Source of the DNA: a virus
Virus record (IMG/VR): IMGVR_UViG_3300044981_000078
Span: 37,669 to 101,668 of that record
DNA length: 64,000 nucleotides
Direction: 5' to 3' (one strand)
Shown here: positions 37,373-62,718 of the stretch, piece by piece
Position numbering within the stretch: position 1 is the first letter of the stretch
Layout of the letters: each line of letters begins with the position of its first letter
Program-made: the position numbers and the translations under genes
The notes under the pieces: model-generated
What the model was told of the DNA's origin: nothing
Databases searched by the model: none
What the model saw: only the letters and a program-made list of their open reading frames with translations

Positions 37373-37653
37373 GTGATAAGAAAGTTGCAAGAAGTTTAGA
37401 AGAGGCTAGAGAGATGGATCGAGATCACAGTTTAGACGGTTTTCCAGAGAGAATCTATATAGCCGATGCTAAAGTTTATAGTTATATGGATTATAAAACA
37501 ATTTCTCGGGCCTTTGAAGATATTGAACAGGCTGTTCCGGCGGGAGAGCCCGTCGAAGTCGGAATCTACCAGCTTGTCCAAACCGCAAAGTTTCAGAAGA
37601 CTGCGGTCGAGGTCAAGACCTTAAAGGAACTAAAAGATGATTCTAACAATTAA
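37369..37653 (+). CDS. hypothetical protein within the NAD locus
   Basis: Overlaps both neighbours. Confidence 0.5.
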   Translation: MSDKKVARSLEEAREMDRDHSLDGFPERIYIADAKVYSYMDYKTISRAFEDIEQAVPAGEPVEVGIYQLVQTAKFQKTAVEVKTLKELKDDSNN

Positions 37654-38506
37654 CTTCCCCAACGACGATCAGTTTAATATGTTCCGATATCCGGGCGGCG
37701 AAGTTCAAGTCCGTCTTACAGAAGAGACCGTGAATCTGTTAAAGCACCCGAAGGTCGAGAAGGTAGATGTTGTCGCCCGCATCCGCGATGGGGAGATTGT
37801 CGCCTTGGCTCAACTGCTGGATGCCATCAAGGGCGCTACGTCTGCCGATGTCCGATTGATCTTGCCGTATCTTCCATATGCACGGGCCGACCGGCGCTTC
37901 ACACTAGGGGACTCACACGGGCTCGCGGTATTCGGGAGGTTGCTCGGGATATCGAGCTATAACATCGTAACCCTGGACGTTCACTCAGACGAGGCCAAGA
38001 AGTATGTTCGCCATCTGACCAACGTGAGCCCGCTGCCGATCATCGGACAGGTCATCGATCACATAGATGGAACAGAGGCTATCGGAACACCGGTTACCTC
38101 AGTGTGCGTGTTGTTGCCGGACGAGGGCTCCTGTAAACGATACTTCGCAGCCGATAATCCGTATGTCTTACACGCCACTAAGAAACGAGACCCCATAACT
38201 GGAAAGCTATCCGGATTTGAGGTCCCGTCGCCAGATAAGTTCCCGGCAGACGCTATATTGATTGTTGACGATATATGCGACGGCGGAGGGACCTTCATTG
38301 GTATAGCGGACGCGCTAGAGGCTTCGGGTAACACTTTGCCGCTATATCTGTATGTAACTCATGGAATCTTCTCAAAGGGGCTTGAAGAACTGTTAAAGAG
38401 ATTCGATCACATCTATACGACCGATAGTTTTAACGACGTTCCGTGGAACACAGATAAGATCACTAGAATCCCGTGCATGCCGACAATTCTTGAGGCTCTA
38501 AAATGA
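37637..38506 (+). CDS. PRPP-synthetase-like protein (Adps of NARP1)
   Basis: YPGGEVQVR, PYLPYARADR, LDVHS, PDEG, VDDICDGGGTF, THGIFSKG. Confidence 0.9.
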   Translation: MILTINFPNDDQFNMFRYPGGEVQVRLTEETVNLLKHPKVEKVDVVARIRDGEIVALAQLLDAIKGATSADVRLILPYLPYARADRRFTLGDSHGLAVFGRLLGISSYNIVTLDVHSDEAKKYVRHLTNVSPLPIIGQVIDHIDGTEAIGTPVTSVCVLLPDEGSCKRYFAADNPYVLHATKKRDPITGKLSGFEVPSPDKFPADAILIVDDICDGGGTFIGIADALEASGNTLPLYLYVTHGIFSKGLEELLKRFDHIYTTDSFNDVPWNTDKITRIPCMPTILEALK

Positions 38507-39622: not shown

Positions 39623-39808
39623 ATGGTTAAAGAAATATTTTACGATTTAGAATTCACTAAAGACGGTGTACTTCCTATATCTTATTCAGGAAAGATATTC
39701 TTAGAGCATTTTCAAAGCACTAATATAAAAGAATTATACACAGAGGCAATCGCCCGCGATTTACATGTGCGATTTGAGACTGCGGAAATCAGAGATTTAG
39801 TTGTTTGA
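39623..39808 (+). CDS. AT-rich orphan ORF inverted within the late block
   Basis: GGAGG RBS; the opposite strand is closed in this interval. Confidence 0.4.
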   Translation: MVKEIFYDLEFTKDGVLPISYSGKIFLEHFQSTNIKELYTEAIARDLHVRFETAEIRDLVV

Positions 39809-39952
39809 TTCGTTTTGAAACTGTTCTGGCAATTCTGACTCTTCCTCACCGGATAGCTCCGCAGGAGGTTGACCAAGGTATGCAAGCTCCAAATAGTTTT
39901 CCCGAGTCATCGGGATACCGGCCTGCTTCATCTTTTCAAGAACGATGTCCAT
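39797..39952 (-). CDS. 51-aa acidic protein (not in the ORF track)
   Basis: MDIVLEKMKQAGIPMTRENYLELAYLGQPPAELSGEEESELPEQFQNESNN; TAATG-coupled to the giant gene with AGGAGG RBS. Confidence 0.7.
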   Translation of the reverse strand: MDIVLEKMKQAGIPMTRENYLELAYLGQPPAELSGEEESELPEQFQNESNN

Positions 39953-42900
39953 TACTCGCCTCCTAATGCTGCTATTCCAGCTTTAGCCCTATTCTGCGCT
40001 ATTTTGGTCGGCTTGTCAATAGGCATATTTATGATGTTCTGCCTGGTCTTATCTGCGGTCTGCTTGCCGTCCTGGTACTTCTTCCATTCGGCATTTACCG
40101 CATTCAGGTTGTCTTTAGTCTTCCATTCCGCCGGAAAGATGTTTCGGACCTTCTCCCAAACTACCGACTGCAGTTCACGGGGCTTCAATCCTAGGTCTTT
40201 AGCGGCCTGCCGATAGGCTTCCGCATATAGCGGATAGGTCCCTTTAACCCCTGTAGCAGCCGATTTGCCAGCCCCGCCGAAATTATCAGTAACTACCCTA
40301 GCGTTTCCGCCGAGAGGCTGTAATAGCCCAGCAGCGACCGCATGAGTATCTATGGTGACATCCTGATCGTTTGTAGGATCGATGATGTTGTTATAGAAAT
40401 TTCGGACCTTGTGAGATGAGCCAACCTGATTACTGATGTTTTCTCGCGAGCCGTCATCTAAGATAGACAACGCCTTACCGATGTTATTCAGATTGCCCCA
40501 AGCCACATTAGCCGGGGTACCATCTGTGTTTGTGAGAACTTCCATCTCATTTCCGGTGGCAGGATCAATTCGCGGGAACTGACGTGGGTTATTAACCTCG
40601 TCAAACAACCTGACTGCAGCAGCGCGATCCCATCCGGTCAATTCCCCGATCTTCTTACCCTCTATATCTGGTAGAAGAGCTTCTAGATTAGAATTGGCCT
40701 TCTTATCCTTGCCCTTTCGTGACTGCTCGATGATATCTTGACCCTTCTGAATCATTTCCGGGGTCACGGGCTCGTCAGCATGATTCTTATAGATGTCAAC
40801 AATTCTCTTTGCGAGCGAGACATTTTGATCCCAATCCATTTGCGGAGACATCGCAGCAGTTACTCCGGCAGTCTGACTATGAGTTAACCCATGTTGATCG
40901 GCCAAATCTTTAGTCAGCTTATGGGCGCTCTCATACCACTTCGCATTATTTTCCTGCTCTTCCGGAGTAGCTTGATCGTACAAGAACTTCAAATTGTCCG
41001 CTACATGCCCAACAAATCGATCAAAGACTTTTCCGTTATCGGAAATGTTCTTAGGTATTTTAACTCCAGGAATCTGTCGAACGTTGTTAGCGAATCTATC
41101 TTGCAGCTTTTGTGGGGACGCTTCTACCGCTTTACGATCTATACCTAGCGGCTCGCCTTGTAAAGGGTTTTCGGTTGCGTTCTTTCCTTCGGGTACTCGG
41201 GTCGAAACACGATCAGATGATAATTTCGGGCTCTGGGGTACGATTGGATTCTCAGCAAGTTTAGACTGCATCTTATCCCGAACTTGACTTCCGATGAACG
41301 GCTCTCTTAGCGCAGCGGTCTTACCGGGTTCGTTTGGGTGCTCGAACTGATGAACTCCGGAACCTGGAACGACTTCACCCTTATAGACTAGACCCTGGTT
41401 TTCTATAGTTTGTTGCGGGGTTAGCTCGGCTGCTTGAACTGTTGATCCAGGTGCTTGCGCAGTTCCGCCTTCTCCTCCGGGGACATCCGCTGCACGTCCT
41501 GTGCCGCCTTCTCCGCCAACTCCTGGGTTGTTAGCTTGTCCTGCTCCATTTTGTGCTCTCCTCATAGCCTCATCGTGCATCGATTGAAGCCTGTCAGGGC
41601 TGTAATGATACTGTCGAGACAGCCCCGGCTCTCTAAGACCGTGATTCTCTTTTATGATATCAGAAACTTCCGGACGGGTCAAGTGCTCTTTCGCCTGATC
41701 TACCGCCCGGTTCATGATATTCATAATGTCATCGTGACCGTATCCTGCGTCTCGTAAAAATCTATATGCGGTATTAGCGTCCGAACCATTTGCGGTGATC
41801 TTAAAATTATGATTTTCTGCTCTCGGCACGTTATTAAAGACTTCGTCTGCAGCCGTCCCGCCCATTAAGCTGCGTATAATAACAGGCATCTTATCCGCTG
41901 CAATACGGTTTGTCTGCGGGTCTTTCAAATTGTTAATGTCCCAACGAACCGCTGCGGTCGCATTTCTAGGCATATCCGGATGTGTATGACGAAGCATGCC
42001 GTCCGCAGCCATGCCGTCATTGAGACCGACCATCGCGTGACCTAGTTCATGAAACTCGACCTGGTTGTTATCTCGGCCACCGGGACGCATAGATATTCGC
42101 TTGTTCTTAGGAATTGAATATCCTTCAGTCGTAGGGATTGTCTCCCCTTCATAGCTTTTCGCACGGCTCCCAGGTACCTGCCAGTCTACTCTCTCGATCC
42201 CCCAGGTTGACGCACCAGGAAATTTCTTTTGCGCAGTTCTAATAGCGTCTTTACTAGAGAAACCAGGGATTGTCTCTGTATGGGAGTTTCCCTCGTTATC
42301 AATGACTTCGATCTTGAAGTTTCTCTTTAATGGAGTTTGCTGTTCTCCCATTGTCAGTTTGTCTTCATCCGACTCGTTTAATTTCGGATTTTCCGGGGTC
42401 TCTAAGACTCGATTAGCCCACGTCCGCTCTTCCGGACTAGCGTTCGGATCGCGTAGAATCTCCCGGGCTATTGTCGCCTGTCCGGTTCTCTGGCCTTCCT
42501 GCCACGCGGGGGTGTCTGCTGCGGGCCTAGATTCTTCTCCCGGTCTTACTCCGCTACCAACGAATTCTTGTCTTAATCCGCTAGCCAATTCGTTCTCTGA
42601 TGTAATTCCGTATTGTGTATCTATAGCTCTACGAAAATCGCCTATTGATCCCTCACCTTCCCCCAAATGATTCCCGTAAAAATTTCTATTATCTCTTTGT
42701 GCAAAATCCCAAAATATGTGATTATTCCAATTCTGTTTTGCAAATCTTCCTATTTCTTGAAGCTGTTCCTCCGATGGCTTTTGAAAAATTTCTACTCCGT
42801 TCGAAGTCATCCTAATAGCTCCGGCATCGTGTAGTTTTTTAGCACCAATATCATCAATCATAGCGTCATGTTCTTGACCACTTGCGGCGTGAATTAAACT

Positions 42901-45900
42901 ACCATCAGCCAGTAAAAAATTTTTATTTCCCCTTCCTACCGCAGAACTCTTACCTATGGGAAAACTCTGGTAAGAAAATTCTCTTGAAAAATTAGGGTCT
43001 TTGACCTCTTCTGCTATCTTTCTCGCTCTACCCTGCGCATCTATCTTTTTCGCAGCGAACTTCGGATTTTTTAAATCGGTAGCTTCGGCTCTGCTGGCTG
43101 GTTCATTTTCTCGAACCCCGCCGCCTTTTCCTTCAACAGGTCCTTGTTTCTCTTGTCGAAACTCTGTTGTATTCCCTTCTTTACCGCCTGCTTCTGTTCC
43201 GGCTCCAGCTTCTTTATTTGCTCGTTTGCCTGCTCCAGAAGTTGCTGGAGACTTCCCTGTGGTTTCATTTTGATCTTTCACATCCTGTAAGATTTGTTCC
43301 ACCCTTTCGGGTGAAACATGATACTTCTCATCCAATCCCGCTTCTCTAACAGCCGAGTGTCTCTCAAGGACATCTTGAACTCCCGGTTGACCTAATATCT
43401 GTGCAGCGTCTTCTGTGGCCTGAGCGATCATCTTTGATGCTTCTGCTTCGGTAAAGCCTACCGAACGCATTGTCTGCTTCAAGATTCGTACGTCTGCCCC
43501 GAGATGGTGGTTCTCGGTGAACGGAATATCATGATACAGATCATTAGCTACCCCGCCCGCGACATATGTGGCAGCGATATCGGCCATCTTGGACTTCAAT
43601 TTAACCGGATCGATATTTCCGTCAGCGTCCATGAACGGTTCGAAGTTAATCGGTGCACTCATCAGCGCCCCGGCGCTAGAGACCTCCGGGTGAAGATGCG
43701 AACGGATTCCGTCTGGAAACTCTATACCGCGCTCCGTGCCGACAACAGCGTGGGCCAGGTCATGTACAATACCCTGCTGAGTATTCATCCCGTCAGCAAA
43801 CTTCGACTTCGGGACCTGTAATAGCGGCTCTACCTCATCGGGCAGAGTAGGATGCGGGGCGGTCTTACCTTGCGCAGCTAGCTCTTGCATTTGCTTCTGT
43901 GCGGCCAGCATGTCGGCTGCGTCTGCCTGGTTGATCTTACCTAGTAGAGATTTCTCGTCACTTTCAAGTGGGACCCCGTGACGACGCTTGTCCGCTACAT
44001 CCTGCATGAACCGATCTTCTAGTTCAACATACGGGGTACTGTGGACGTTCTCATTATAGAATGTCGCTAGCTCTGTATGCAGAGGAGACATCTCGCGCTG
44101 GGGAACATACATCTGCATCCGAGGGCTCACAGCACCCGGCGGATTAAATGGTCCGGATGGCTGTCCGGCTCCCGTTATCTCTGTAATCGGAATCCCGGCT
44201 ACCGAGTTCTTCATCCTTCTTTGAATTAATTGGTCGCGGGTCAAATCATCCGGATAGATCGCCTTCCCGAGCATACTAGTGCGGTTTGTGGCGATATCTC
44301 CGACAACCGCCCCGGCGGGACCGGCCATCTTAGCGCCGACCCCGATTCCGGCCTTATTGACCGCCCACTGCGCGGCCTTACGTATCGCACCCGGTTGATT
44401 GCTTCCACGGACACGTACATCACCATTATTCGGGTTTCTCTCAGCCGCGTTACGTACTCGAATAATTGAGGCTTCATCCTGACGAAGCTCTCGAATTCCA
44501 CTTATTCCCTTATCTTCAAATAAGTCATACTCGCCGTTTCGAAGAGAGTCTAGCGCGTGGTACTTAGCCGCAAACTCCGGGTCCACCTCTAGCGCAGTCG
44601 CTAGATTCCACTTTGTATCTTGCAGTCGCCCGCGAACTTCGGCGTTAAGCTGCTTTCTGATTCTATCGGCCTCTTCGACCGAAGGATCGATCAAATTGTA
44701 CGGTTCAAGAGCCTTCATCCCTTTTTCTACGAAGTCGGCGCGAGGATTGTCGGCTAGTGCTTCTCGAACGTCCATTCGTACGTTTCGAGTGATCGGCTCG
44801 TTAGCGTATCTCTCTCGGTACGGAGCGACCTGCTGTTCCATGTTCTTCTGAATATAGTCTAGGGCGCTCGCCACCCCCTGCTTAGACTCTATAGGTTCGA
44901 TACTTTTGTGATGATTCTCTAAGTACGCATCAGCTATATCCAGATCACGGTCAGTATACGCAGCGGGACCTTTCGGCGCGGGAGGAACTGCCTTCTTAAA
45001 GTCTTCTCTAGCCTCGGCAGCCTTCTGAGTCTGCTTTGCGGTTACCGTACCCTTAGACTTTTGAATCTTTCGATTTAGCTTATCAACTTCTGCAGCCGCC
45101 TCTGCCCTCTGGTCATGCACATCGGATAATGCCTGAGTTGCCTTACGAGCGTTTGCTGTTGCCTCTGACGCACGAGTATTCGTATCATCAAGCTGTTGCT
45201 TAGTTATCTTTCCGTCTTGAAAATCAACCGCAGCTTGCTTAGCGTCTTTAGTTGCCTGAATCGCCTGGTCTGTGGCTATTCCGTGTTCATTTAAGCGTTG
45301 ATCATACATTGCAACCGCAGCATCGTGCGCGGAAGACGCTGTCTGTAACGCTCTGGCGTCAGATTGAAACGCTCTACCTACTCTCTCGTGCGCTTCCGGA
45401 CCCAGCAGGGTTAAAGCAATAGACGGAACAGATTCACCGGCTATTCCGGCGACATCGCCCTTTGCCGCACGCTCCCTTATACCTTCGGGATCAAGACCGA
45501 TCAACGATCCTACCGAACCCGCCGCAGCAGATACAATCGGCTGGCCCTCTTTACGAGCTTGCTTATACTCGTCATAAGCGCCCTCTGCCGCTTGAACTCC
45601 CTGAATTATAGGCCCACCCGGAACTAGTCCTGTCATTACTGAAGTTGCCGCACTTTTTAGGTCGTGCGGAATCATGGCCTTGGCTCCGGATACTATACCG
45701 GAACCGAATCTACTCAATGCTGAATCTTGAGGCAGCGGCTCCTGAGTCGCGCCTTTCGGGATCGGAACACGGTTTCCCTGCAGATCGGTCATCATGTCAT
45801 CTGCTGGCTGTGCAGATATCGGTGTTTGTTGAGCGCCCTGCGGGATAGGTACTACATTCCCCTGCAGGTCGGTCATCATTCCTGGTGCTAGTTGATCTGC

Positions 45901-45903
45901 CAT
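39952..45903 (-). CDS. giant multidomain internal virion/ejection protein (two M41-like zincins, C-terminal glycosylase-like domain)
   Basis: 1983 aa, last of the ejection cluster; HDLAH and HELGH domains; WY..AAMSP..KVRNFYNNI..VTIDTH..LQSVVW. Confidence 0.75.
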   Translation of the reverse strand: MADQLAPGMMTDLQGNVVPIPQGAQQTPISAQPADDMMTDLQGNRVPIPKGATQEPLPQDSALSRFGSGIVSGAKAMIPHDLKSAATSVMTGLVPGGPIIQGVQAAEGAYDEYKQARKEGQPIVSAAAGSVGSLIGLDPEGIRERAAKGDVAGIAGESVPSIALTLLGPEAHERVGRAFQSDARALQTASSAHDAAVAMYDQRLNEHGIATDQAIQATKDAKQAAVDFQDGKITKQQLDDTNTRASEATANARKATQALSDVHDQRAEAAAEVDKLNRKIQKSKGTVTAKQTQKAAEAREDFKKAVPPAPKGPAAYTDRDLDIADAYLENHHKSIEPIESKQGVASALDYIQKNMEQQVAPYRERYANEPITRNVRMDVREALADNPRADFVEKGMKALEPYNLIDPSVEEADRIRKQLNAEVRGRLQDTKWNLATALEVDPEFAAKYHALDSLRNGEYDLFEDKGISGIRELRQDEASIIRVRNAAERNPNNGDVRVRGSNQPGAIRKAAQWAVNKAGIGVGAKMAGPAGAVVGDIATNRTSMLGKAIYPDDLTRDQLIQRRMKNSVAGIPITEITGAGQPSGPFNPPGAVSPRMQMYVPQREMSPLHTELATFYNENVHSTPYVELEDRFMQDVADKRRHGVPLESDEKSLLGKINQADAADMLAAQKQMQELAAQGKTAPHPTLPDEVEPLLQVPKSKFADGMNTQQGIVHDLAHAVVGTERGIEFPDGIRSHLHPEVSSAGALMSAPINFEPFMDADGNIDPVKLKSKMADIAATYVAGGVANDLYHDIPFTENHHLGADVRILKQTMRSVGFTEAEASKMIAQATEDAAQILGQPGVQDVLERHSAVREAGLDEKYHVSPERVEQILQDVKDQNETTGKSPATSGAGKRANKEAGAGTEAGGKEGNTTEFRQEKQGPVEGKGGGVRENEPASRAEATDLKNPKFAAKKIDAQGRARKIAEEVKDPNFSREFSYQSFPIGKSSAVGRGNKNFLLADGSLIHAASGQEHDAMIDDIGAKKLHDAGAIRMTSNGVEIFQKPSEEQLQEIGRFAKQNWNNHIFWDFAQRDNRNFYGNHLGEGEGSIGDFRRAIDTQYGITSENELASGLRQEFVGSGVRPGEESRPAADTPAWQEGQRTGQATIAREILRDPNASPEERTWANRVLETPENPKLNESDEDKLTMGEQQTPLKRNFKIEVIDNEGNSHTETIPGFSSKDAIRTAQKKFPGASTWGIERVDWQVPGSRAKSYEGETIPTTEGYSIPKNKRISMRPGGRDNNQVEFHELGHAMVGLNDGMAADGMLRHTHPDMPRNATAAVRWDINNLKDPQTNRIAADKMPVIIRSLMGGTAADEVFNNVPRAENHNFKITANGSDANTAYRFLRDAGYGHDDIMNIMNRAVDQAKEHLTRPEVSDIIKENHGLREPGLSRQYHYSPDRLQSMHDEAMRRAQNGAGQANNPGVGGEGGTGRAADVPGGEGGTAQAPGSTVQAAELTPQQTIENQGLVYKGEVVPGSGVHQFEHPNEPGKTAALREPFIGSQVRDKMQSKLAENPIVPQSPKLSSDRVSTRVPEGKNATENPLQGEPLGIDRKAVEASPQKLQDRFANNVRQIPGVKIPKNISDNGKVFDRFVGHVADNLKFLYDQATPEEQENNAKWYESAHKLTKDLADQHGLTHSQTAGVTAAMSPQMDWDQNVSLAKRIVDIYKNHADEPVTPEMIQKGQDIIEQSRKGKDKKANSNLEALLPDIEGKKIGELTGWDRAAAVRLFDEVNNPRQFPRIDPATGNEMEVLTNTDGTPANVAWGNLNNIGKALSILDDGSRENISNQVGSSHKVRNFYNNIIDPTNDQDVTIDTHAVAAGLLQPLGGNARVVTDNFGGAGKSAATGVKGTYPLYAEAYRQAAKDLGLKPRELQSVVWEKVRNIFPAEWKTKDNLNAVNAEWKKYQDGKQTADKTRQNIINMPIDKPTKIAQNRAKAGIAALGGE

Positions 45904-48174
45904 CTATCTATACCCGATGATCTTGCCTTGTGCGTCCTTAATTGCAGTTGTGGCGTTCGGCGGAGGAGGCGGGGTCGGAGAGTTAACTAGACCGCTCTCA
46001 CCTTGCGCCGTAATTGAGTTCGGATTAATACCAAAATCTCGAAGAACTTTTGATGTGTCTGGGTCCATGAAATTCGGGATGTCCTTACCGCCCATCTGAT
46101 CTCTATACGCCTTATTCATTGCTCGGGCACGAATTGCGATAGTGTTTGCCATCTGTCGCATCATGGCCTGGGCTTGGGCCGGAGACGTATTTGTGCTCTG
46201 CAGCCTTGCTGCCAAATCATCATCTGACGCGTGCTTTGCTTTTTGATTCAACAAAAAGTTGATATACTCATCTGCCGCAGCCGCTACCGCTGTTCTATAT
46301 TGAATGAACTGAGGCTGTCCAAGGACATCCTCTTTAATCTTATTAAGCGGTGTGTTCAACAACGGACTTTTAGTGTTACCGAGACTAGATATCAAATTAT
46401 TAGCATCACCGATGTGTCCACCAAACGCGTTCAAGCTCTGTTTTGCGATTCCGCCCTTGCCTTCCGGTCGGAAGTCTTCAGCGGTCTTATAACGAGATTG
46501 GTATTCACCGAAACTCCAACTTGGGTCTCGACGGTGCATCTCAGCTTCAAATGCTAACTTCTCTTTCGCGCTCTTAAATCGAGGAAACAACTTGTCGGGA
46601 TCGGTCTCATAGTTCAGGGCCATGTCCATCAAACTAGACAAGTCTCCCTTATTTGCGTTCATCTCTGCATCTGTCTCTCGTGATTTTTTATCTACATCAT
46701 AATCTAAACTTGCTTTTGCCGAAGCGTTGGCTTGATCGAGCATTCGTTGATAGCGCGGCTTTAGCGCAGCCGGAGTATTAGGATCGGCAATCTTTGCTTG
46801 AAGAGTGGCCGCTAGACCGGCGGCGTCTTCTCCGTGGGCTTTATCAACCTCTTTCTGGAGGTTTGTGATTAACTCCATTCCAGAATCTACTTTCTTCTGA
46901 TAGTCATCGAGCATCTTATCATAGAGATAACTCTTCTCTCCGCCCTTAGTCTGGGTATAGCCAAGATATTCCCGCATATCATTATCTACGTTGTTGTACT
47001 TCCCGTACAATGGACTCTTCGGGTCTTGACTGGCCTGAAGCAGTGCGTTTCTGGCGGAGATAAAGTCCGGAACTCCATTAACATTAGAAGCCTGACCAAG
47101 GGCCTTTATAATATTTGGGTCCTGTCTAAACTTCAAAGCCTCTTCATCTTTCTTCACATCTTCTTGAGCAAATCCAAACTGAGCGGCTACTTTCTGAGCA
47201 GCTATATCTGCCGCCTGACGCTCGTTCGACATCTGCAACAGCATGTTGTATTGAGCGCCGCTGAAGTGAATCGGCTTACTATTTTCACCTTCCCAGGTCT
47301 TGCCCGGTTCTGGCGGAGCGTACTTATTGATTCGATCTAGTACCGCCTTTTGATCCTTGTCCTTGGGGTCCAAGTCTACCGGGGTGACTCTGACTACGCT
47401 ATAGGTCAATTGATTATACGGTTGACCATCTTTATCTACTGTCGTAATAACCCCCGAAGGGACCAGGGTCTCTTCTGTCGGGTCTAGACCGTCTTTCTTA
47501 AGCATGTCCTTAGCTTGATCTGCGGTCAAGCCCTTGGCTCTCTCAATACCCGGATTCGGCTGATTCTTCCACGCGGCTAACTGTTCTTGTCCGCTCTTTA
47601 GAGATGCTATAGTCCCCTCTTCTTTCAAATTATGGGTCAACTGCTGCTCATGAACCATGCGGGCGTTTGCTTCCGCATTTAATACTTTGTTCTTGTCGGC
47701 TTCCTGCTGATTTTGAAACTGCTGCTGTTTTTGTGCTGTCAATCTTTGGTTACGAGCGGCGAGTGTTCGAGTCAATCCCTCTAAAGCACCGCCACCAGAC
47801 GGAACTGTCCCAACCGCAGAAGCGTCCCCTAGACCGCCGATAGCGCCCATCGTTCCAGAGATCAATGCCTGCCACAAACCACCAGGTTTAGAAGCTAACG
47901 TGGGATTTTTCTTTATGGCGGTATCAGTATGCTGAGCCAGTGCTTGAAGAACCGGGGAGCCTTTCGCTCTAAGCTGATCTCCTATCGTAGCCCCGCCAGA
48001 CGGCGGCATAGGCAGCGTTCCGTTATCCTCTGGAGCTTGATCCTGATTAGATAGTGCAGCCGCTCCGGGGGGCGCAGAAGCTGAGGATGCAACTAGTCCT
48101 GCAGGAGTTAGATTTCCCAACAGGTCTCTTGTCGGAGGAGTCGAAAGCATATTTGGTGTTACGATAGGTGCCAT
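45904..48174 (-). CDS. internal virion/ejection protein
   Basis: Helical, Q/A-rich, with Gly-rich hydrophobic segments; lies between the pilot protein and the giant protein. Confidence 0.6.
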   Translation of the reverse strand: MAPIVTPNMLSTPPTRDLLGNLTPAGLVASSASAPPGAAALSNQDQAPEDNGTLPMPPSGGATIGDQLRAKGSPVLQALAQHTDTAIKKNPTLASKPGGLWQALISGTMGAIGGLGDASAVGTVPSGGGALEGLTRTLAARNQRLTAQKQQQFQNQQEADKNKVLNAEANARMVHEQQLTHNLKEEGTIASLKSGQEQLAAWKNQPNPGIERAKGLTADQAKDMLKKDGLDPTEETLVPSGVITTVDKDGQPYNQLTYSVVRVTPVDLDPKDKDQKAVLDRINKYAPPEPGKTWEGENSKPIHFSGAQYNMLLQMSNERQAADIAAQKVAAQFGFAQEDVKKDEEALKFRQDPNIIKALGQASNVNGVPDFISARNALLQASQDPKSPLYGKYNNVDNDMREYLGYTQTKGGEKSYLYDKMLDDYQKKVDSGMELITNLQKEVDKAHGEDAAGLAATLQAKIADPNTPAALKPRYQRMLDQANASAKASLDYDVDKKSRETDAEMNANKGDLSSLMDMALNYETDPDKLFPRFKSAKEKLAFEAEMHRRDPSWSFGEYQSRYKTAEDFRPEGKGGIAKQSLNAFGGHIGDANNLISSLGNTKSPLLNTPLNKIKEDVLGQPQFIQYRTAVAAAADEYINFLLNQKAKHASDDDLAARLQSTNTSPAQAQAMMRQMANTIAIRARAMNKAYRDQMGGKDIPNFMDPDTSKVLRDFGINPNSITAQGESGLVNSPTPPPPPNATTAIKDAQGKIIGYR

Positions 48175-48175
48175 A

Positions 48176-48859
48176 TTATACTCCCTGCCCAAAGCCGCTA
48201 AAGAAGTTTCCTACCTGCTCTCCAGCAGAGGATGAGCCAGTTGTGTCTAGATTACCTAATCCGCCCATCAAACCGCCGGTGGCCAACCCTGTTATACCAC
48301 CAACTATGCTTGCCACCTCTTGATTCTTCATATCCTGAACCTTAGTCTGATCTTGGAACGCACCTTGGGTCGCACCGGTCGCTTGACCGGCTATAGCATT
48401 CGGATTGTATTCACCAACTAACGCATTTAATCCTGCTGTAGCCTGTTGCCAATTTTGTCTTCCAGTTGCGTAATTAGCTTGTGTAACTGCCAACTGTTCC
48501 TGCGATTGCTGATTTGCCGCCGCTGTCGCAAGATTTGATTTCAAAGCTCCGGCTGCGCCGCTAGGAAGAAATTCATTTCCTCCACCTTGAGAGGCTAATT
48601 GCGTGTTTAACGCTTGCGATGCCTTAGCGTAATTCTGTCCGACTCCCTCACCAATTTGTGTATTGTACGCCGCTAACTGCTGTGCATTAAAACCTTGTTG
48701 ATTAGGCCCGGCCTCTGCTATGGGGGTGAAAATGTTATTTAGATTTTGTAAAGCAGCACTCTGAGCGCCAAAATTTTGAGAATAATTAGCCTGCAGCAAA
48801 TTTGAAAAATTTTGTTCCGAATTCGCTAACTGTTCTTGTTGAGCCGACGGTCCGCAAAT
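48176..48859 (-). CDS. DNA pilot/ejection protein, probable ATT start (MCGPS...)
   Basis: A/Q/G/N-rich with a C-terminal Gly-rich hydrophobic stretch; frame is open upstream of TTG 48799 to ATT-TGC-GGA. Confidence 0.6.
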   Translation of the reverse strand: MCGPSAQQEQLANSEQNFSNLLQANYSQNFGAQSAALQNLNNIFTPIAEAGPNQQGFNAQQLAAYNTQIGEGVGQNYAKASQALNTQLASQGGGNEFLPSGAAGALKSNLATAAANQQSQEQLAVTQANYATGRQNWQQATAGLNALVGEYNPNAIAGQATGATQGAFQDQTKVQDMKNQEVASIVGGITGLATGGLMGGLGNLDTTGSSSAGEQVGNFFSGFGQGV

Positions 48860-50807: not shown

Positions 50808-52727
50808 TTATCTTAGACCCTTACAGTTCAATGTAGCCGCGCCAGGAGTAATAGAGCCTCCTGTGTTGTTGATCTGATCTACGTTAATAGTTCCCGCAGA
50901 TATCCAGGTCTTCAAGGTCAATCCGCCGCTTGCACTCGGAGCATATCCAGTAACCGCGTTGGTGTCGCCGCTAAACGTACAATCAATTGCGTCTGTTGAT
51001 GTACTTAGTCCCGCGCAGCTTAGAGTGTTTATTGCTCTAGTTCCAGAAGCTATCGCGCCTGTTGACAGCGCGATCTGGCCACTGCAAATAACTTTACCAA
51101 CAGAAAAACCCTGTACAGTTAAATTAGGGGTTATGGCTACAGTAGTTAAACCAGACGATCCAGATTGTTGAATTGTCAAAGTGGACGTTGGATTTGCGCC
51201 CGTACCGAGAACATCCTGAATTGACCAAGAGTTTAATGCCGCCGCCGCGCCTGTCCAATAATTAGATTGGACTACTACCGGGTTTGAGTTTTGATTTGCT
51301 CCACCTGTTGCTGAAACTAATTGCGGGAATAATATTCCAGTAAACCCACTAAAAACACCCATACGGACTACTATCGGAGCAACACCCGTACCATCAATAA
51401 CAGCGCCTAATTCAAATCCGTGGTTATTATTTATCGGTACTGTATTTATGTTTCTAAACCAAGTAGCGTCAGTTGTATCGCCTAGGGTTGTGATAGCTAA
51501 CGCTACTGTATTAGGCCACGCTATAATATTTTGATTTACTCCATATCCTGTTCCTGTTATACTAAATGAGCCCGATCCCGGACCAAACATAGCCACTGTG
51601 CCGGAATCAAGAGAATAGGCTATATCGAGAACTGCTGTCGCTGCGCGTGTTTCTAAAACCCCACCGCCGTTATATAACACTAATGAACTAGTTGACGCAG
51701 ACTGTACCTGAAATCGTCCGTTATTACCAGCGTTTACAAAACCGGCAATCGTAACATACATATTTACAGACGGCACAAATCCTACCGTAGTACTCCAGAC
51801 ATATGTTGTTAAACCTCCGGATGCATTTGAAGCAGCGGTAACAGATATTGACGCTCCTTGCGTAGGCCCGGCAGGCAGACTAAACGATTGAACAGTTACG
51901 GCCCCTAGAGCAAAACTAGTACTTTGCCCAAAGAAAGAACCCACTGAACCGGATAACGTAATTGACGTTCGGCTCGGTCCAGCGCCAGATGGATGGCTAA
52001 AATTTAAACTGCTAGTGGGCGCAACTGCCACAGAATCAAATCCTGTCACATTCGTAATCTGCCAAGCGTCCACAACTGACGCCGACCCGTTCCACGCCGT
52101 TCCCGACAAATTAATTGCCGGAGAATTTTGACCGGGTACACCGCTAGTTGCTGGAGTTATGTTTGCCCAAGTCCAAACAGCAGAGTTTGTTTGATTAAAT
52201 GTGGTTGCGTTTGTTCCGTTCGCTAAAATTAAAGAACTTGTAGCATTTCCTAGCTGACTCCAAAGCACATCTCCCGACTGTATATTTGATGGTACAAAGT
52301 TTGTACCATTCCCACGCAAGAATTGTCCGTTCGGCGCACCGCCGCTCAATTGAAAACCTGTGGTAGCATTAAGAGTCGCACCACTAAATGTTGTCCCGTT
52401 AAAAGTTGTTCCGTTAAACGTTGTGCCACTAAATGTCGTACCACTAAATGTGCCCGCTGATAGAGTTGCTGTCCCTGAATTATATGTAAGATTATTGGTG
52501 CCGCCAATTACGTTAGGCGCAGTTCCTATCGCAACTTGTCCGCTTGCAATAGCTCCGCCAATTCCGGTCGCGGAACTAGCAAGAGTTCCTTGCAGTACCC
52601 CATTGGCATCTATCCACCCGAATATGGTTCCACCTTGGCTACTGGCGACCTGAAGAAAGTCGTCAGTTGAATTTCTTCCGTTAACGAACGTTCCAATGAC
52701 AGCCTTGGCTGTCGGATTTAATCCCAT
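50808..52727 (-). CDS. tail fibre protein
   Basis: G/S/T/N-rich, GTTF[SN] repeats, modules shared with neighbouring tail genes. Confidence 0.7.
   Translation of the reverse strand: MGLNPTAKAVIGTFVNGRNSTDDFLQVASSQGGTIFGWIDANGVLQGTLASSATGIGGAIASGQVAIGTAPNVIGGTNNLTYNSGTATLSAGTFSGTTFSGTTFNGTTFNGTTFSGATLNATTGFQLSGGAPNGQFLRGNGTNFVPSNIQSGDVLWSQLGNATSSLILANGTNATTFNQTNSAVWTWANITPATSGVPGQNSPAINLSGTAWNGSASVVDAWQITNVTGFDSVAVAPTSSLNFSHPSGAGPSRTSITLSGSVGSFFGQSTSFALGAVTVQSFSLPAGPTQGASISVTAASNASGGLTTYVWSTTVGFVPSVNMYVTIAGFVNAGNNGRFQVQSASTSSLVLYNGGGVLETRAATAVLDIAYSLDSGTVAMFGPGSGSFSITGTGYGVNQNIIAWPNTVALAITTLGDTTDATWFRNINTVPINNNHGFELGAVIDGTGVAPIVVRMGVFSGFTGILFPQLVSATGGANQNSNPVVVQSNYWTGAAAALNSWSIQDVLGTGANPTSTLTIQQSGSSGLTTVAITPNLTVQGFSVGKVICSGQIALSTGAIASGTRAINTLSCAGLSTSTDAIDCTFSGDTNAVTGYAPSASGGLTLKTWISAGTINVDQINNTGGSITPGAATLNCKGLR
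52375..52455 (-). repeat. 15-nt tandem coding repeat (GTTF[S/N] x5)
   Basis: GTFSGTTFSGTTFNGTTFNGTTFSGAT. Confidence 0.75.
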
Positions 52728-60964: not shown

Positions 60965-62056
60965 TTAGAAACCCTGACCCGGACCAGGGAACGGATACGC
61001 AGCGCCGCGCCATCCGGCACCTCGTGCGCCACCACCACGACTGAATATAGACTGATCCGGAACGAACATGTTCTCTTCAAGCTCGCGATCTTCTGCTGCC
61101 CGCAAATCGTTCAAACTCTTTAACCACAGTTGATAGTTCTTTTCAAACTTAGCCTGAACAGATGCAAGAGAGCTATATCGATAGCACTGAGCGATAATAC
61201 CTTGACGAAAGTATGGTTCGTACTTATCTGGAAACGGGTCCAAGGTGTCGGACAAACTTACAAACTGCTTAGCCGGTCGCTGACCTATCAAATTAAATTG
61301 AAATACTGCGCCGGTCTGTGACGGAACAGGGAGAACTCTGATTCCAATTCCGTTGGGGTCTACAACAGTCCACACTGTTGAACCATCGGGGGTGTTTGTT
61401 CCTGGGGCCGCTCCCGCAGGGGGCCAGTTCGGTTGAGTCGCGCCACACGTACCATATACGGTCACAACCTGAAGGTTACCGTTCGGGTCTTGAACTTGCG
61501 CGATAGGATTATTCGGCTGACTGTTAGAACTAGCGTTCAATGGATTAGTATAAATAGAACCGGGGCCTGGATTGTTACCGGTTGTAGGGCTGCCTTGATC
61601 TGTTCCGCCCCACGTACCGAAGTACAACATAAAATTTGGAAAATAATTGGCTATGAATGTCGGACTTCTCCAAGAACTAGGCTGGAGGAATGATCCCGTA
61701 GCTTGGGTTAGCTGACGACCGGTCTCCACGTATCCCCAAGCCTTCGAAATACTAGTGCTGGTCATATCGATGGCTATACCGCGAGACAGCCACTCGACCC
61801 CGTAAAAACTAGTTCCGTTGGGGTTTATCAAAGCATAATCTTGCTGCCAACTGTTGGTATAAAATAACGGGAGCTTTACTTCATTCCACTTATGGGGAAA
61901 CGGCAAACCCACGATATCATTGTAAACATCGGAACAAATCGAGATAAATGGTTCTAGCTGATATCCGCTCACGTTGTTTAAGACTGGATTCACGTCTCCC
62001 AAAGGAAGGACTCTATCAAGAATTTTCTGCAAAGTCAGTTTTGACTGCGAATTCAT
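60965..62056 (-). CDS. second adaptor-like virion protein with an inserted domain
   Basis: PFPHKWN, QQDY, PVPSQ, PFPDKY; insert containing TPDGSTVW. Confidence 0.6.
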   Translation of the reverse strand: MNSQSKLTLQKILDRVLPLGDVNPVLNNVSGYQLEPFISICSDVYNDIVGLPFPHKWNEVKLPLFYTNSWQQDYALINPNGTSFYGVEWLSRGIAIDMTSTSISKAWGYVETGRQLTQATGSFLQPSSWRSPTFIANYFPNFMLYFGTWGGTDQGSPTTGNNPGPGSIYTNPLNASSNSQPNNPIAQVQDPNGNLQVVTVYGTCGATQPNWPPAGAAPGTNTPDGSTVWTVVDPNGIGIRVLPVPSQTGAVFQFNLIGQRPAKQFVSLSDTLDPFPDKYEPYFRQGIIAQCYRYSSLASVQAKFEKNYQLWLKSLNDLRAAEDRELEENMFVPDQSIFSRGGGARGAGWRGAAYPFPGPGQGF

Positions 62057-62718
62057 GCCCCACCCCAACGAACTGCTGCACCGCGCTTACCTAGCTCTTT
62101 CAGACGAATTCTTTCTTTAGGGTCTTCAAATCGTTTCTTAGCTGCAATACTCATTTTTAAACGAGTTTCAGGAGACCACTGCTTTCCTTTATTCCAGATT
62201 GTTTCAGTCTCAAATCTTTTCTTCTGTGCCGGACCCATCTTTACACAAAGTTCTGGAGAATACTTCTTTCCTTTATTTGGTGGTACCTTACCCCTCCTAG
62301 CTACACTCATTTTTTCTTTAGTTTCTAAAGATACAACTACTCCTAAACGAGGACCGGGGCGTCCCTTGTGGGCTTCTGAATTTTTGCGATTAGATTCTTC
62401 TGTATGTTTGTGCCCCAAAAAACCACGAGTTATGTTTCCTTCTCCGCCATCTGTAAGATTTCTTAAACATCCTGTTCCTATATCAATACGACCCCAATTA
62501 TTAATAAGCTCTTTCTCTGTATCATATGCTTCTTGCTCAGAATCTCTAAACATAACAATAATTCTAGACTTATCAATGGGCGGCTGTATGTGACCACTGT
62601 GCTTTGTAAACGCACGAATACCTTTTCCTTTCCCTACATAATAAGGAGTCCCCGCAGGGTGTTCTCCGTCTTTATCCCTCATCCATAGATAGCAGTAAAA
62701 TTGAGTAGGACTAGCCAT
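62053..62718 (-). CDS. GIY-YIG-like homing endonuclease with NUMOD3 repeats
   Basis: YCY...PYYVGKG..R, E..LI, NLTDGGEG; HTEESNRKNS, SLETKEKMS, SPETRLKMS. Confidence 0.85.
   Translation of the reverse strand: MASPTQFYCYLWMRDKDGEHPAGTPYYVGKGKGIRAFTKHSGHIQPPIDKSRIIVMFRDSEQEAYDTEKELINNWGRIDIGTGCLRNLTDGGEGNITRGFLGHKHTEESNRKNSEAHKGRPGPRLGVVVSLETKEKMSVARRGKVPPNKGKKYSPELCVKMGPAQKKRFETETIWNKGKQWSPETRLKMSIAAKKRFEDPKERIRLKELGKRGAAVRWGGA

Follow-up and report, generated by a model that had tools for sequence, protein, structure and literature searches.

The window (the whole 64,000-nucleotide viral stretch analyzed here) carries a giant gene followed directly by a small gene for an acidic product (Table 1). 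The giant protein combines two paralogous HExxH-containing, FtsH/M41-like zincin domains (E 2e-20) with a C-terminal domain of ≈400 residues that corresponds to a long form of DUF7178; with at least two effector-type domains on one polypeptide, it is of the polyvalent type. The Pfam DUF7178 profile (PF23802) matches with an E value of 2.7e-31 and a score of 109.5 bits, above the gathering cut-off of 27, in two stretches with an insertion between them, and the PHROGs matches of the giant protein are phrog_3842 and phrog_2878. The resemblance to DUF7178 claimed in the initial annotation is borne out by this match, and the motifs on which that annotation drew (WYESA, AAMSP, KVRNFYNNI, VTIDTHA, and LQSVVW) are all present in the last ≈430 residues. 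Megablast returned no near-identical phage record for this region.

Table 1. Positions of the genes and elements discussed, numbered along the window.
Feature	Position	Strand	Basis
Giant polyvalent-type gene, 1983-aa product	39952..45903	-	ORF read and domain matches
Core of long-form DUF7178, residues 76-410 of the 432-aa piece (39955-41250, -)	40021..41025	-	Part aligning with HhH-GPD glycosylase structures; model with pLDDT 92.3
Helix-hairpin-helix-like element at residues 269-290 of the piece (RENISNQV-GSSH-KVRNFYNNI); His280, Lys281, and Arg283 are invariant	40381..40446	-	Conservation, model helices 269-275 and 280-290, by-eye alignment to E. coli Nth
Lys281 codon	40408-40410	-	Invariant column
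Pro-bearing loop, then the invariant triplet Asp301-Thr302-His303 capping the N-terminus of helix 302-309	40342..40380	-	Conservation, model, by-eye Nth comparison
Asp301 codon (candidate catalytic Asp)	40348-40350	-	Invariant
51-aa acidic partner gene (P0002), -1 (+2) frame relative to the giant gene	39797..39952	-	ORF, SD, conservation, profile
AGGAGG ribosome-binding site of the small gene	39959..39964	-	6 nt upstream of ATG; formed by the giant gene's terminal Gly-Gly codons
PRPP-synthetase-like gene	37637-38506

DUF7178 is mentioned in no paper of the literature searched. The family has more than 965 homologues, some of them fused to ART-PolyVal (PF18760) or GNAT domains, and IMG/VR holds at least 592 confirmed stretches that match it, across hundreds of viral contigs. 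All 39 homologues that we aligned match DUF7178. Stand-alone phrog_3842/DUF7178 proteins of ≈200 residues, such as Microbacterium phage Cece gp22 and Synechococcus phage S-CRES3 gp63, have the WY, SP..W, K..F(Y), and (I/V)D.H motifs in common with the window domain and retain the K...(I/V)D.H dyad; depositors labeled two such short proteins "glycosylase" and "N-glycosylase/DNA lyase." Unlike these proteins, the window domain is long, split by an insertion, fused to a giant protein, and accompanied by a partner gene, which the short forms do not have.

The model of the DUF7178 domain is of high confidence (pLDDT 92.3, pTM 0.90). A Foldseek search of the PDB placed the 8-oxoG glycosylase Pa-AGOG in the top two rows (E 0.05, probability 0.82), and in a second structure search, independent of Foldseek, ranks 1 to 20 of 48,161 solved chains all went to the HhH-GPD superfamily (Ogg, Qng1, AGOG, EndoIII, and MutY). 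The best structural match, 3n0u, aligned over 185 residues with an rmsd of 3.9 and a Z score of 9.2, a moderate value of the kind that, by the search tool's own guidance, helical models often reach; AGOG also matched, as did EndoIII and MagIII (Z 6.8). Sequence comparison gave no corresponding signal: hhalign of the DUF7178 family against E. coli Nth returned a probability of 0.1, none of 39 family members matched PF00730 even at E ≤ 10, the window's own record contains no PF00730 match, BLASTP with the motif region found no matches, and phmmer and profile searches of the PDB yielded only noise, including a Skp/HLP-1 match in a low-complexity flank. A homologue search seeded with Nth retrieved only enterobacterial Nth sequences at least 86% identical to it. 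The initial annotation had suggested a helix-hairpin-helix (HhH) fold for the C-terminal domain, and the confident model indeed resembles HhH-GPD glycosylases and nothing else; on this predicted structure, we take long-form DUF7178 to belong, as a divergent form, to the N-glycosylases of the HhH-GPD fold class.

Candidate active-site residues fall in the HhH-like element and in the loop and helix that follow it. Altogether ≈19 polar residues are invariant, including H280, K281, R283, N287, N288, T299, D301, T302, H303, R358, Q361, S362, and E366, and P292, located between the HhH helices and D301, is invariant as well. Lys281 lies 20 residues upstream of the Asp of the IDTH motif, and both are matched to Lys120 and Asp138 of EndoIII by eye and by the order of the model helices, an equivalence that is visual and not a superposition. 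The invariance and by-eye placement of this pair lend weight to the earlier likening of IDTH to the catalytic VDTH of HhH-GPD enzymes. In the model, Lys281 and Asp301 would be arranged as in endonuclease III and other bifunctional glycosylase/AP-lyases.

The small gene starts at a TAATG junction, in which its ATG (39950-39952) and the TAA of the giant gene (39952-39954) overlap by one base. Its product contains TRENYL and ELSGEEESELPE and has a net charge of about -8, compared with a mean of -6.5 over 44 members of its family. Relatives have the same Gly-Gly/SD arrangement, and in each of the three closest viral contigs a conserved copy of the peptide gene is likewise coupled. Modeled alone, it is predicted to fold (pLDDT 87) into four short helices with no strand, and the best PDB matches to this model (Z 3.1) are unrelated proteins. 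Pfam, PHROGs, and NCBIfam recognized neither the peptide nor the neighboring large genes, and a protein atlas queried with the peptide returned only a viral cluster of its own kind. The coupled gene with an acidic tail is present as first described. The Ugi-like nature proposed for its product finds no support at the level of the predicted fold, which is all-helical and has no PDB match, leaving only a functional analogy.

A profile of the partner family finds 716 protein clusters at E ≤ 1e-3, so that the family comprises at least that many. Because of this breadth and the conserved coupling in the three nearest contigs, the partner gene is more than a chance reading frame. The linkage to DUF7178, which the initial annotation had put forward as a test, proved strongly positive. 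Among loci selected by the peptide alone, a DUF7178 domain lies on the same strand, just upstream, and ends at the peptide in 66 of 67; among loci selected by DUF7178 alone, the peptide is found at the domain end in 65 of 80, with its start -34 to +126 nt from it. The peptide is absent at the other 15 loci, in Roseobacter phage CRP-738, and beside short forms. The small gene is therefore co-inherited with the enzyme-like domain in the directly downstream position of a cognate pair, and the peptide and the DUF7178 domain very likely constitute a working pair. The partner role of the peptide is well supported; an inhibitory role is putative.

The reading frame of the peptide differs from that of the domain throughout the 134 paired loci, being +1 in 124 and +2 in 10, the window among the latter. 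Often the peptide is nested inside a continuing giant ORF, usually in the +1 frame. Where the peptide is nested, the codon position that varies most is no longer position 3 of the main frame (0.42) but position 1, and it reverts downstream; main-frame position 1, which is position 3 of the peptide, stands at 0.22 versus 0.08 in the nested stretch, as measured on 19 pairs of nested loci. Judged by these substitutions, the pattern shows the peptide frame to be the frame under selection there. An RNA element was rejected as an explanation of the conserved stretch, since the substitutions are codon-periodic in the peptide frame. Free-standing members are picked up by gene callers, all 716 clusters being called proteins.

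Taking these observations together, we lean, with modest confidence, toward a reading in which an ejected HhH-GPD-like glycosylase domain is accompanied by a dedicated small partner that keeps it inactive in the producing cell. The DUF7178 domain would ride on a polyvalent protein that is probably packaged in the capsid and ejected, enter the new host along with the phage DNA, and cleave a glycosidic bond, whether of DNA or of a nucleotide. Polyvalent proteins have been described as delivered with DNA (PMC5512222), and in phage CRP-738 the gene order is terminase, portal, small gene, and DUF7178 protein. For the upstream neighbor, the Atlas points weakly to a family of ejection proteins. Against delivery, no recognizable virion-protein family was found among the neighboring genes. 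The small four-helix protein would be the domain's dedicated partner, presumably translated by coupling from an SD supplied by the giant gene's own Gly-Gly codons. Its most likely role would be to bind the domain and hold the enzyme inactive in the producing cell, and this non-covalent partner would come off either at packaging of the giant protein or as that protein threads its way out of the virion.

Tight linkage would be expected not only of an inhibitor but just as much of a peptide that the DUF7178 domain requires as a subunit or that serves it as a folding chaperone or for docking; such a peptide might complete the substrate site or tether a neighboring protein. The peptide is predicted to be an autonomously folding mini-domain, it occurs as tandem duplicates and N-terminally on proteins of 519 (P0288) and 756 (P0287) residues, as a docking module might, although the N-terminal occurrence would suit an inhibitor equally, and the short DUF7178 forms without it also lack the segments that the long form adds at its N-terminus, internally, and at its C-terminus. 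An obligate subunit would nevertheless be expected to fuse with its enzyme sometimes, and no in-frame fusion was found in the 134 paired loci or among the longer proteins searched. Moreover, about a fifth of long-form domains lack the peptide, and strong acidity is typical of nucleic-acid mimics. We regard a subunit or docking role as possible though rather doubtful. Far less probable is that the peptide is no separate protein and represents a C-terminal extension of DUF7178 made by programmed ribosomal frameshifting. The use of two frames speaks against this explanation, as do the window clade's own ATG at the stop codon with a perfect SD and the upstream ATG of nearly all +1 copies, many with an SD; no common slippery sequence was found, and the junction in nested copies is free of stop codons. 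Frameshifting would, on the other hand, fit the observations that the peptide core begins exactly at the domain end in most loci and that, in +1 copies, the frame is open for 10 to 35 codons upstream, with the nearest ATG 10 to 24 codons before the core.

The enzyme half of the pair may also be read differently, either as an enzyme that, like Qng1, hydrolyzes a free nucleotide or signaling molecule or as a non-catalytic HhH domain that binds or protects DNA. Qng1 (DUF2419), a nucleotide hydrolase and not a DNA enzyme, nearly equals the top score in the structure search (Z 8.3 and 8.2) and gives the longest alignments (230 and 223 residues), and sequence comparison ties DUF7178 to none of the DNA glycosylase families. 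The phage also carries other nucleotide-centered counter-defense genes, such as the PRPP-synthetase-like gene. However, 19 of the 21 HhH-GPD rows of that search are DNA glycosylases, DNA glycosylase/lyases are typified by an invariant HhH-helix Lys combined with the Asp, and the number of invariant polar residues argues against a purely binding role, so we consider both of these readings unlikely.

Returning to an ejected glycosylase-like domain restrained by its partner, a bolder version can be offered as a speculation that we would not expect to hold in full. Polyvalent virion proteins would then be built of cassettes of an enzyme domain and its cognate inhibitor, with the inhibitors overprinted on linkers so that recombination cannot split the pairs. 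DUF7178 would be an injected enzyme excising bases or modified bases, active once its acidic cap is lost on ejection, that strikes host DNA or its modifications and spares phage DNA, possibly Mom-modified. If DUF7178 is an injected glycosylase, base excision joins the known first-minute weapons of phages.

The window domain has an all-helical, two-lobed fold in common with HhH-GPD enzymes (endonuclease III/Nth, Tm1821 Ogg of Thermotoga, AGOG, MutY, and AlkA) and with Qng1/DUF2419. Compared by eye, the model would also match the HhH-GPD enzymes in a helix-hairpin-helix followed by a loop with a Pro and by an Asp that caps a helix N-terminus, and the bifunctional ones in a Lys on the second HhH helix. 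The domain differs in having ≈150 more residues, with additions at both ends and within, in being embedded in a phage polyvalent protein, and in having neither an Fe-S cluster motif nor detectable sequence-profile similarity. For the partner, the closest functional analogs may be Ugi of PBS1/2 and p56 of phi29, small acidic phage inhibitors of DNA glycosylases. The window peptide is likewise small and very acidic, and is encoded next to the enzyme that it would control; in contrast to Ugi, it is predicted to be all-helical, and its presumed target is the phage's own enzyme rather than the host UDG.

Polyvalent proteins of phages and conjugative elements, as described by Iyer et al. 2017 (PMC5512222), carry several effector-type domains per polypeptide, and so does the window protein, with its two zincin-like domains and one enzyme-like domain. 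The words "glycosylase" and "overlapping" have 0 occurrences in that paper, whereas the window has a glycosylase-like domain and the family has overlapping partner genes. The Rz/Rz1 spanins (Kongari et al. 2018, PMC6139136) have interacting products encoded by genes that are embedded, overlapped, or separated, the small gene lying in the +1 frame and often being missed by gene callers. The partner family likewise has a small gene in another frame with coding selection of its own, the window representing the separated form with a 1-nt overlap. The function is unrelated, and the host gene here encodes a multi-domain putative virion protein. The partner family alone covers all three arrangements, which PMC6139136 did not find for embedded spanins. 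Its members are real genes and form a large set that has no name; many lie nested within giant genes in a second frame and would there be expected to escape annotation pipelines. In polymorphic toxin-immunity pairs, too, an immunity-like gene directly follows a toxin-like domain. With their partner genes, DUF7178 domains would serve as a clean and testable example of overprinting that keeps an enzyme and its controller from parting.

The window, whose source viral record (101.7 kb) is rated 98% complete, contains a giant minus-strand gene directly followed by a small gene encoding a 51-residue acidic peptide, the peptide ATG and the giant-gene TAA overlapping by one base. An AGGAGG sequence built from the giant gene's last Gly-Gly codons lies 6 nt upstream of this ATG. 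All motifs named in the initial annotation occur in the last ≈430 residues of the giant protein, which match Pfam DUF7178 (PF23802; E 2.7e-31, 109.5 bits); with the coupled ORF, these findings confirm the original observation. The PHROGs matches of this C terminus, phrog_3842 and phrog_2878, are both of unknown function.

Features of the giant gene, its partner and other genes of the window
Feature	Position	Strand	Remark
PRPP-synthetase-like protein	37637-38506	+	
Peptide ORF, 51 aa	39797-39952	-	directly after giant gene
Giant ORF, 1983 aa	39952-45903	-	
FtsH/M41-like metallopeptidase domain 2	41404-42216	-	HELGH
Small ORF, 42 aa	41421-41549	-	+1 frame in giant gene, starts at zincin-domain end
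Small ORF, 65 aa	43071-43268	-	+1 frame in giant gene, starts at zincin-domain end
FtsH/M41-like metallopeptidase domain 1	43204-43926	-	HDLAH replaces HExxH
762-aa protein	45904-48192	-	directly upstream of giant gene
639-aa protein	50808-52727	-	in giant gene's minus-strand block
221-aa ORF	62053-62718	-	inside large-gene block

The DUF7178 domain belongs to a large family, with more than 965 homologues found among shorter proteins alone, some of them fused to ART-PolyVal (PF18760) or GNAT domains, and at least 592 IMG/VR stretches confirmed as relatives. An alignment of 39 members reveals about 19 invariant polar residues, including H280, K281, R283, N287, N288, T299, D301, T302, H303, R358, Q361, S362, and E366, numbered along the 432-residue domain piece encoded at 39955-41250 on the minus strand. 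The K...(I/V)D.H dyad is also kept in short (≈200-residue) DUF7178 proteins of cultured phages, and two short family members carry the depositor labels "glycosylase" and "N-glycosylase/DNA lyase."

An AlphaFold2 model of the domain, computed with the 39-member alignment, is all-helical (pLDDT 92.3, pTM 0.90). Foldseek returned no strong match in the PDB, its best two rows being the 8-oxoguanine glycosylase Pa-AGOG (E 0.05, probability 0.82). In an independent structure search of 48,161 representative chains, ranks 1 to 20 all belong to the HhH-GPD superfamily; at the structural level, the initial annotation guessed the fold correctly. The top match is Thermotoga Ogg (3n0u; Z 9.2, rmsd 3.9, 185 aligned), and the first 20 also include Qng1/DUF2419, AGOG, EndoIII and MagIII (6.8), then OGG1, Mag1, MutY, ROS1, and a thermostable thymine-DNA glycosylase; helical models commonly reach Z values of this size, according to the search tool's own warning, and the uniformity of the match list therefore weighs more than the scores. 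AlkA and MBD4 appear farther down, interspersed with unrelated proteins.

The local anatomy of the model also agrees with the HhH-GPD fold. Helix 269-275, a GSSH hairpin, and helix 280-290 form a helix-hairpin-helix whose second helix is opened by the invariant Lys281, followed by a loop with the invariant Pro292 and by the invariant Asp301, which caps helix 302-309. The spacing between the domain's Lys and Asp is 20 residues versus 18 for Lys120-Asp138 in Escherichia coli Nth, an equivalence drawn by eye. That by-eye equivalence counts against homology with HhH-GPD enzymes, as do the lack of a sequence-level link in profile-against-sequence and Pfam searches and the matches to Qng1/DUF2419 (Z 8.3 and 8.2), which nearly equal those of the DNA enzymes even though Qng1 acts on nucleotides rather than DNA. 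The domain resembles HhH-GPD proteins in structure, and we do not take superfamily membership as proven. We conclude that it would act as HhH-GPD N-glycosylases do, probably through Lys/Asp chemistry.

The nearest three viral contigs keep the coupled peptide gene, with a TAATG or ATGA overlap and AGGAGG. A four-sequence profile of the peptide matches 716 protein clusters at E ≤ 1e-3; the 150 matches listed are all small (41-287 residues), and the family consensus is xxDxVLxxMKxxGIPxTRENYLxLAYxGxPPxELxAEEEAELPxxFQ. The linkage of peptide and domain, a check proposed in the initial annotation, is strongly positive in both directions. Among 67 viral loci fetched via the peptide alone, 66 have a same-strand DUF7178 domain ending at the peptide, the sole exception being cut off by a contig end. 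Conversely, the peptide starts -34 to +126 nt from the domain end in 65 of 80 loci fetched via DUF7178 alone (+1 frame in 60, +2 in five) and is absent there in 15. Roseobacter phage CRP-738 likewise lacks it, as do the short DUF7178 proteins that stand alone. In two DUF7178 loci, a peptide-family copy lies 3.7 kb (L077) or 423 nt (L116) downstream of the domain, and the pair can therefore separate.

In 36 of 134 paired loci, the giant ORF has no stop at this point but continues by 0.3 kb or more (as much as 3.3 kb among the tabulated cases) and so encloses the entire peptide gene, which is read in the +1 frame. Across 19 pairs of nested loci, per-site differences at main-frame codon positions 1, 2, and 3 are 0.057, 0.030, and 0.419 upstream of the overlap, 0.222, 0.057, and 0.082 within it, and 0.191, 0.116, and 0.444 downstream. 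The third codon position of the peptide frame corresponds to main-frame position 1, and the peak of variation there within the overlap indicates purifying selection on the peptide frame. Such selection rules out both an RNA element and a chance ORF. Production of the peptide by programmed frameshifting, instead of by its own initiation, is unlikely, since two frames are used (overall +1 in 124 loci, +2 in 10 including the window, and 0 in none) and almost every copy carries an ATG of its own, which favors separate initiation. Often, a Shine-Dalgarno sequence is provided by the domain's conserved AGG(I/V).

Modeled alone, the peptide forms four short helices (residues 3-11, 17-24, 35-40, and 43-46; pLDDT 87). 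Its best PDB match, at Z 3.1, is not meaningful, so the Ugi-like character initially proposed does not appear to extend to its fold. The peptide is highly acidic: its net charge averages -6.5 over 44 members and is about -8, by hand count, in the window copy. So tight a linkage, maintained despite the cost that overprinting imposes, is expected for a cognate binding partner. We favor the plausible role of an inhibitor or immunity protein of the domain, for which toxin-immunity pairs and small acidic inhibitors of glycosylases provide the analogy. A serious rival is that the peptide serves as a required subunit or docking module. No in-frame fusion of peptide and DUF7178 was found in a search of longer proteins or among the 134 paired loci. 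Elsewhere (P0273, P0274, P0149, P0287, and P0288), the peptide module is duplicated in tandem within a single small protein or makes up the first ≈55 residues of two larger proteins, of 519 and 756 residues, that have no known domains.

The giant protein has a polyvalent make-up, combining DUF7178 with two M41-like zincin domains that are paralogous to each other (BLASTP E 2e-20). Delivery of polyvalent proteins together with DNA has been described, in a paper that names neither a glycosylase domain nor overlapping partner genes (PMC5512222). In CRP-738, the DUF7178 protein comes after terminase and portal; in the window, the large neighbors of the giant gene lack known-family matches. Virion delivery of the giant protein is likely. 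The 65- and 42-residue ORFs nested in the giant gene are alike (LEPEQKQAVKKGIQQSF versus MSPEEKAELRKHLDQQF), and for the latter a related contig carries a homologue with 56% identity in the equivalent position (L002, 7903-8004). Each enzyme domain may have its own trailing partner gene.

Among the other genes, the 762-residue protein is matched by nothing in Pfam, PHROGs, or NCBIfam, and the closest named cluster in the protein atlas, "phage DNA ejection protein" (PF16928; score 0.91, only 135 shared features), is a weak lead. The 639-residue protein bears a pentapeptide-repeat stretch at residues 87-125, and the 221-residue ORF has matches among the PHROGs of homing endonucleases (phrog_314, E 3e-16). 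Pfam links the PRPP-synthetase-like protein weakly to Pribosyltran_N and Pribosyl_synth, which would fit the NARP1-type genes for NAD+ reconstitution of the initial annotation.

The separated, overlapped, and embedded arrangements of Rz/Rz1 spanin genes (PMC6139136) are all also seen in the peptide family, the window copy being of the separated type. Against the published record, the system varies on kinds already known, namely enzymes resembling HhH-GPD proteins, pairings of the toxin-immunity type, and the gene architecture of Rz/Rz1.
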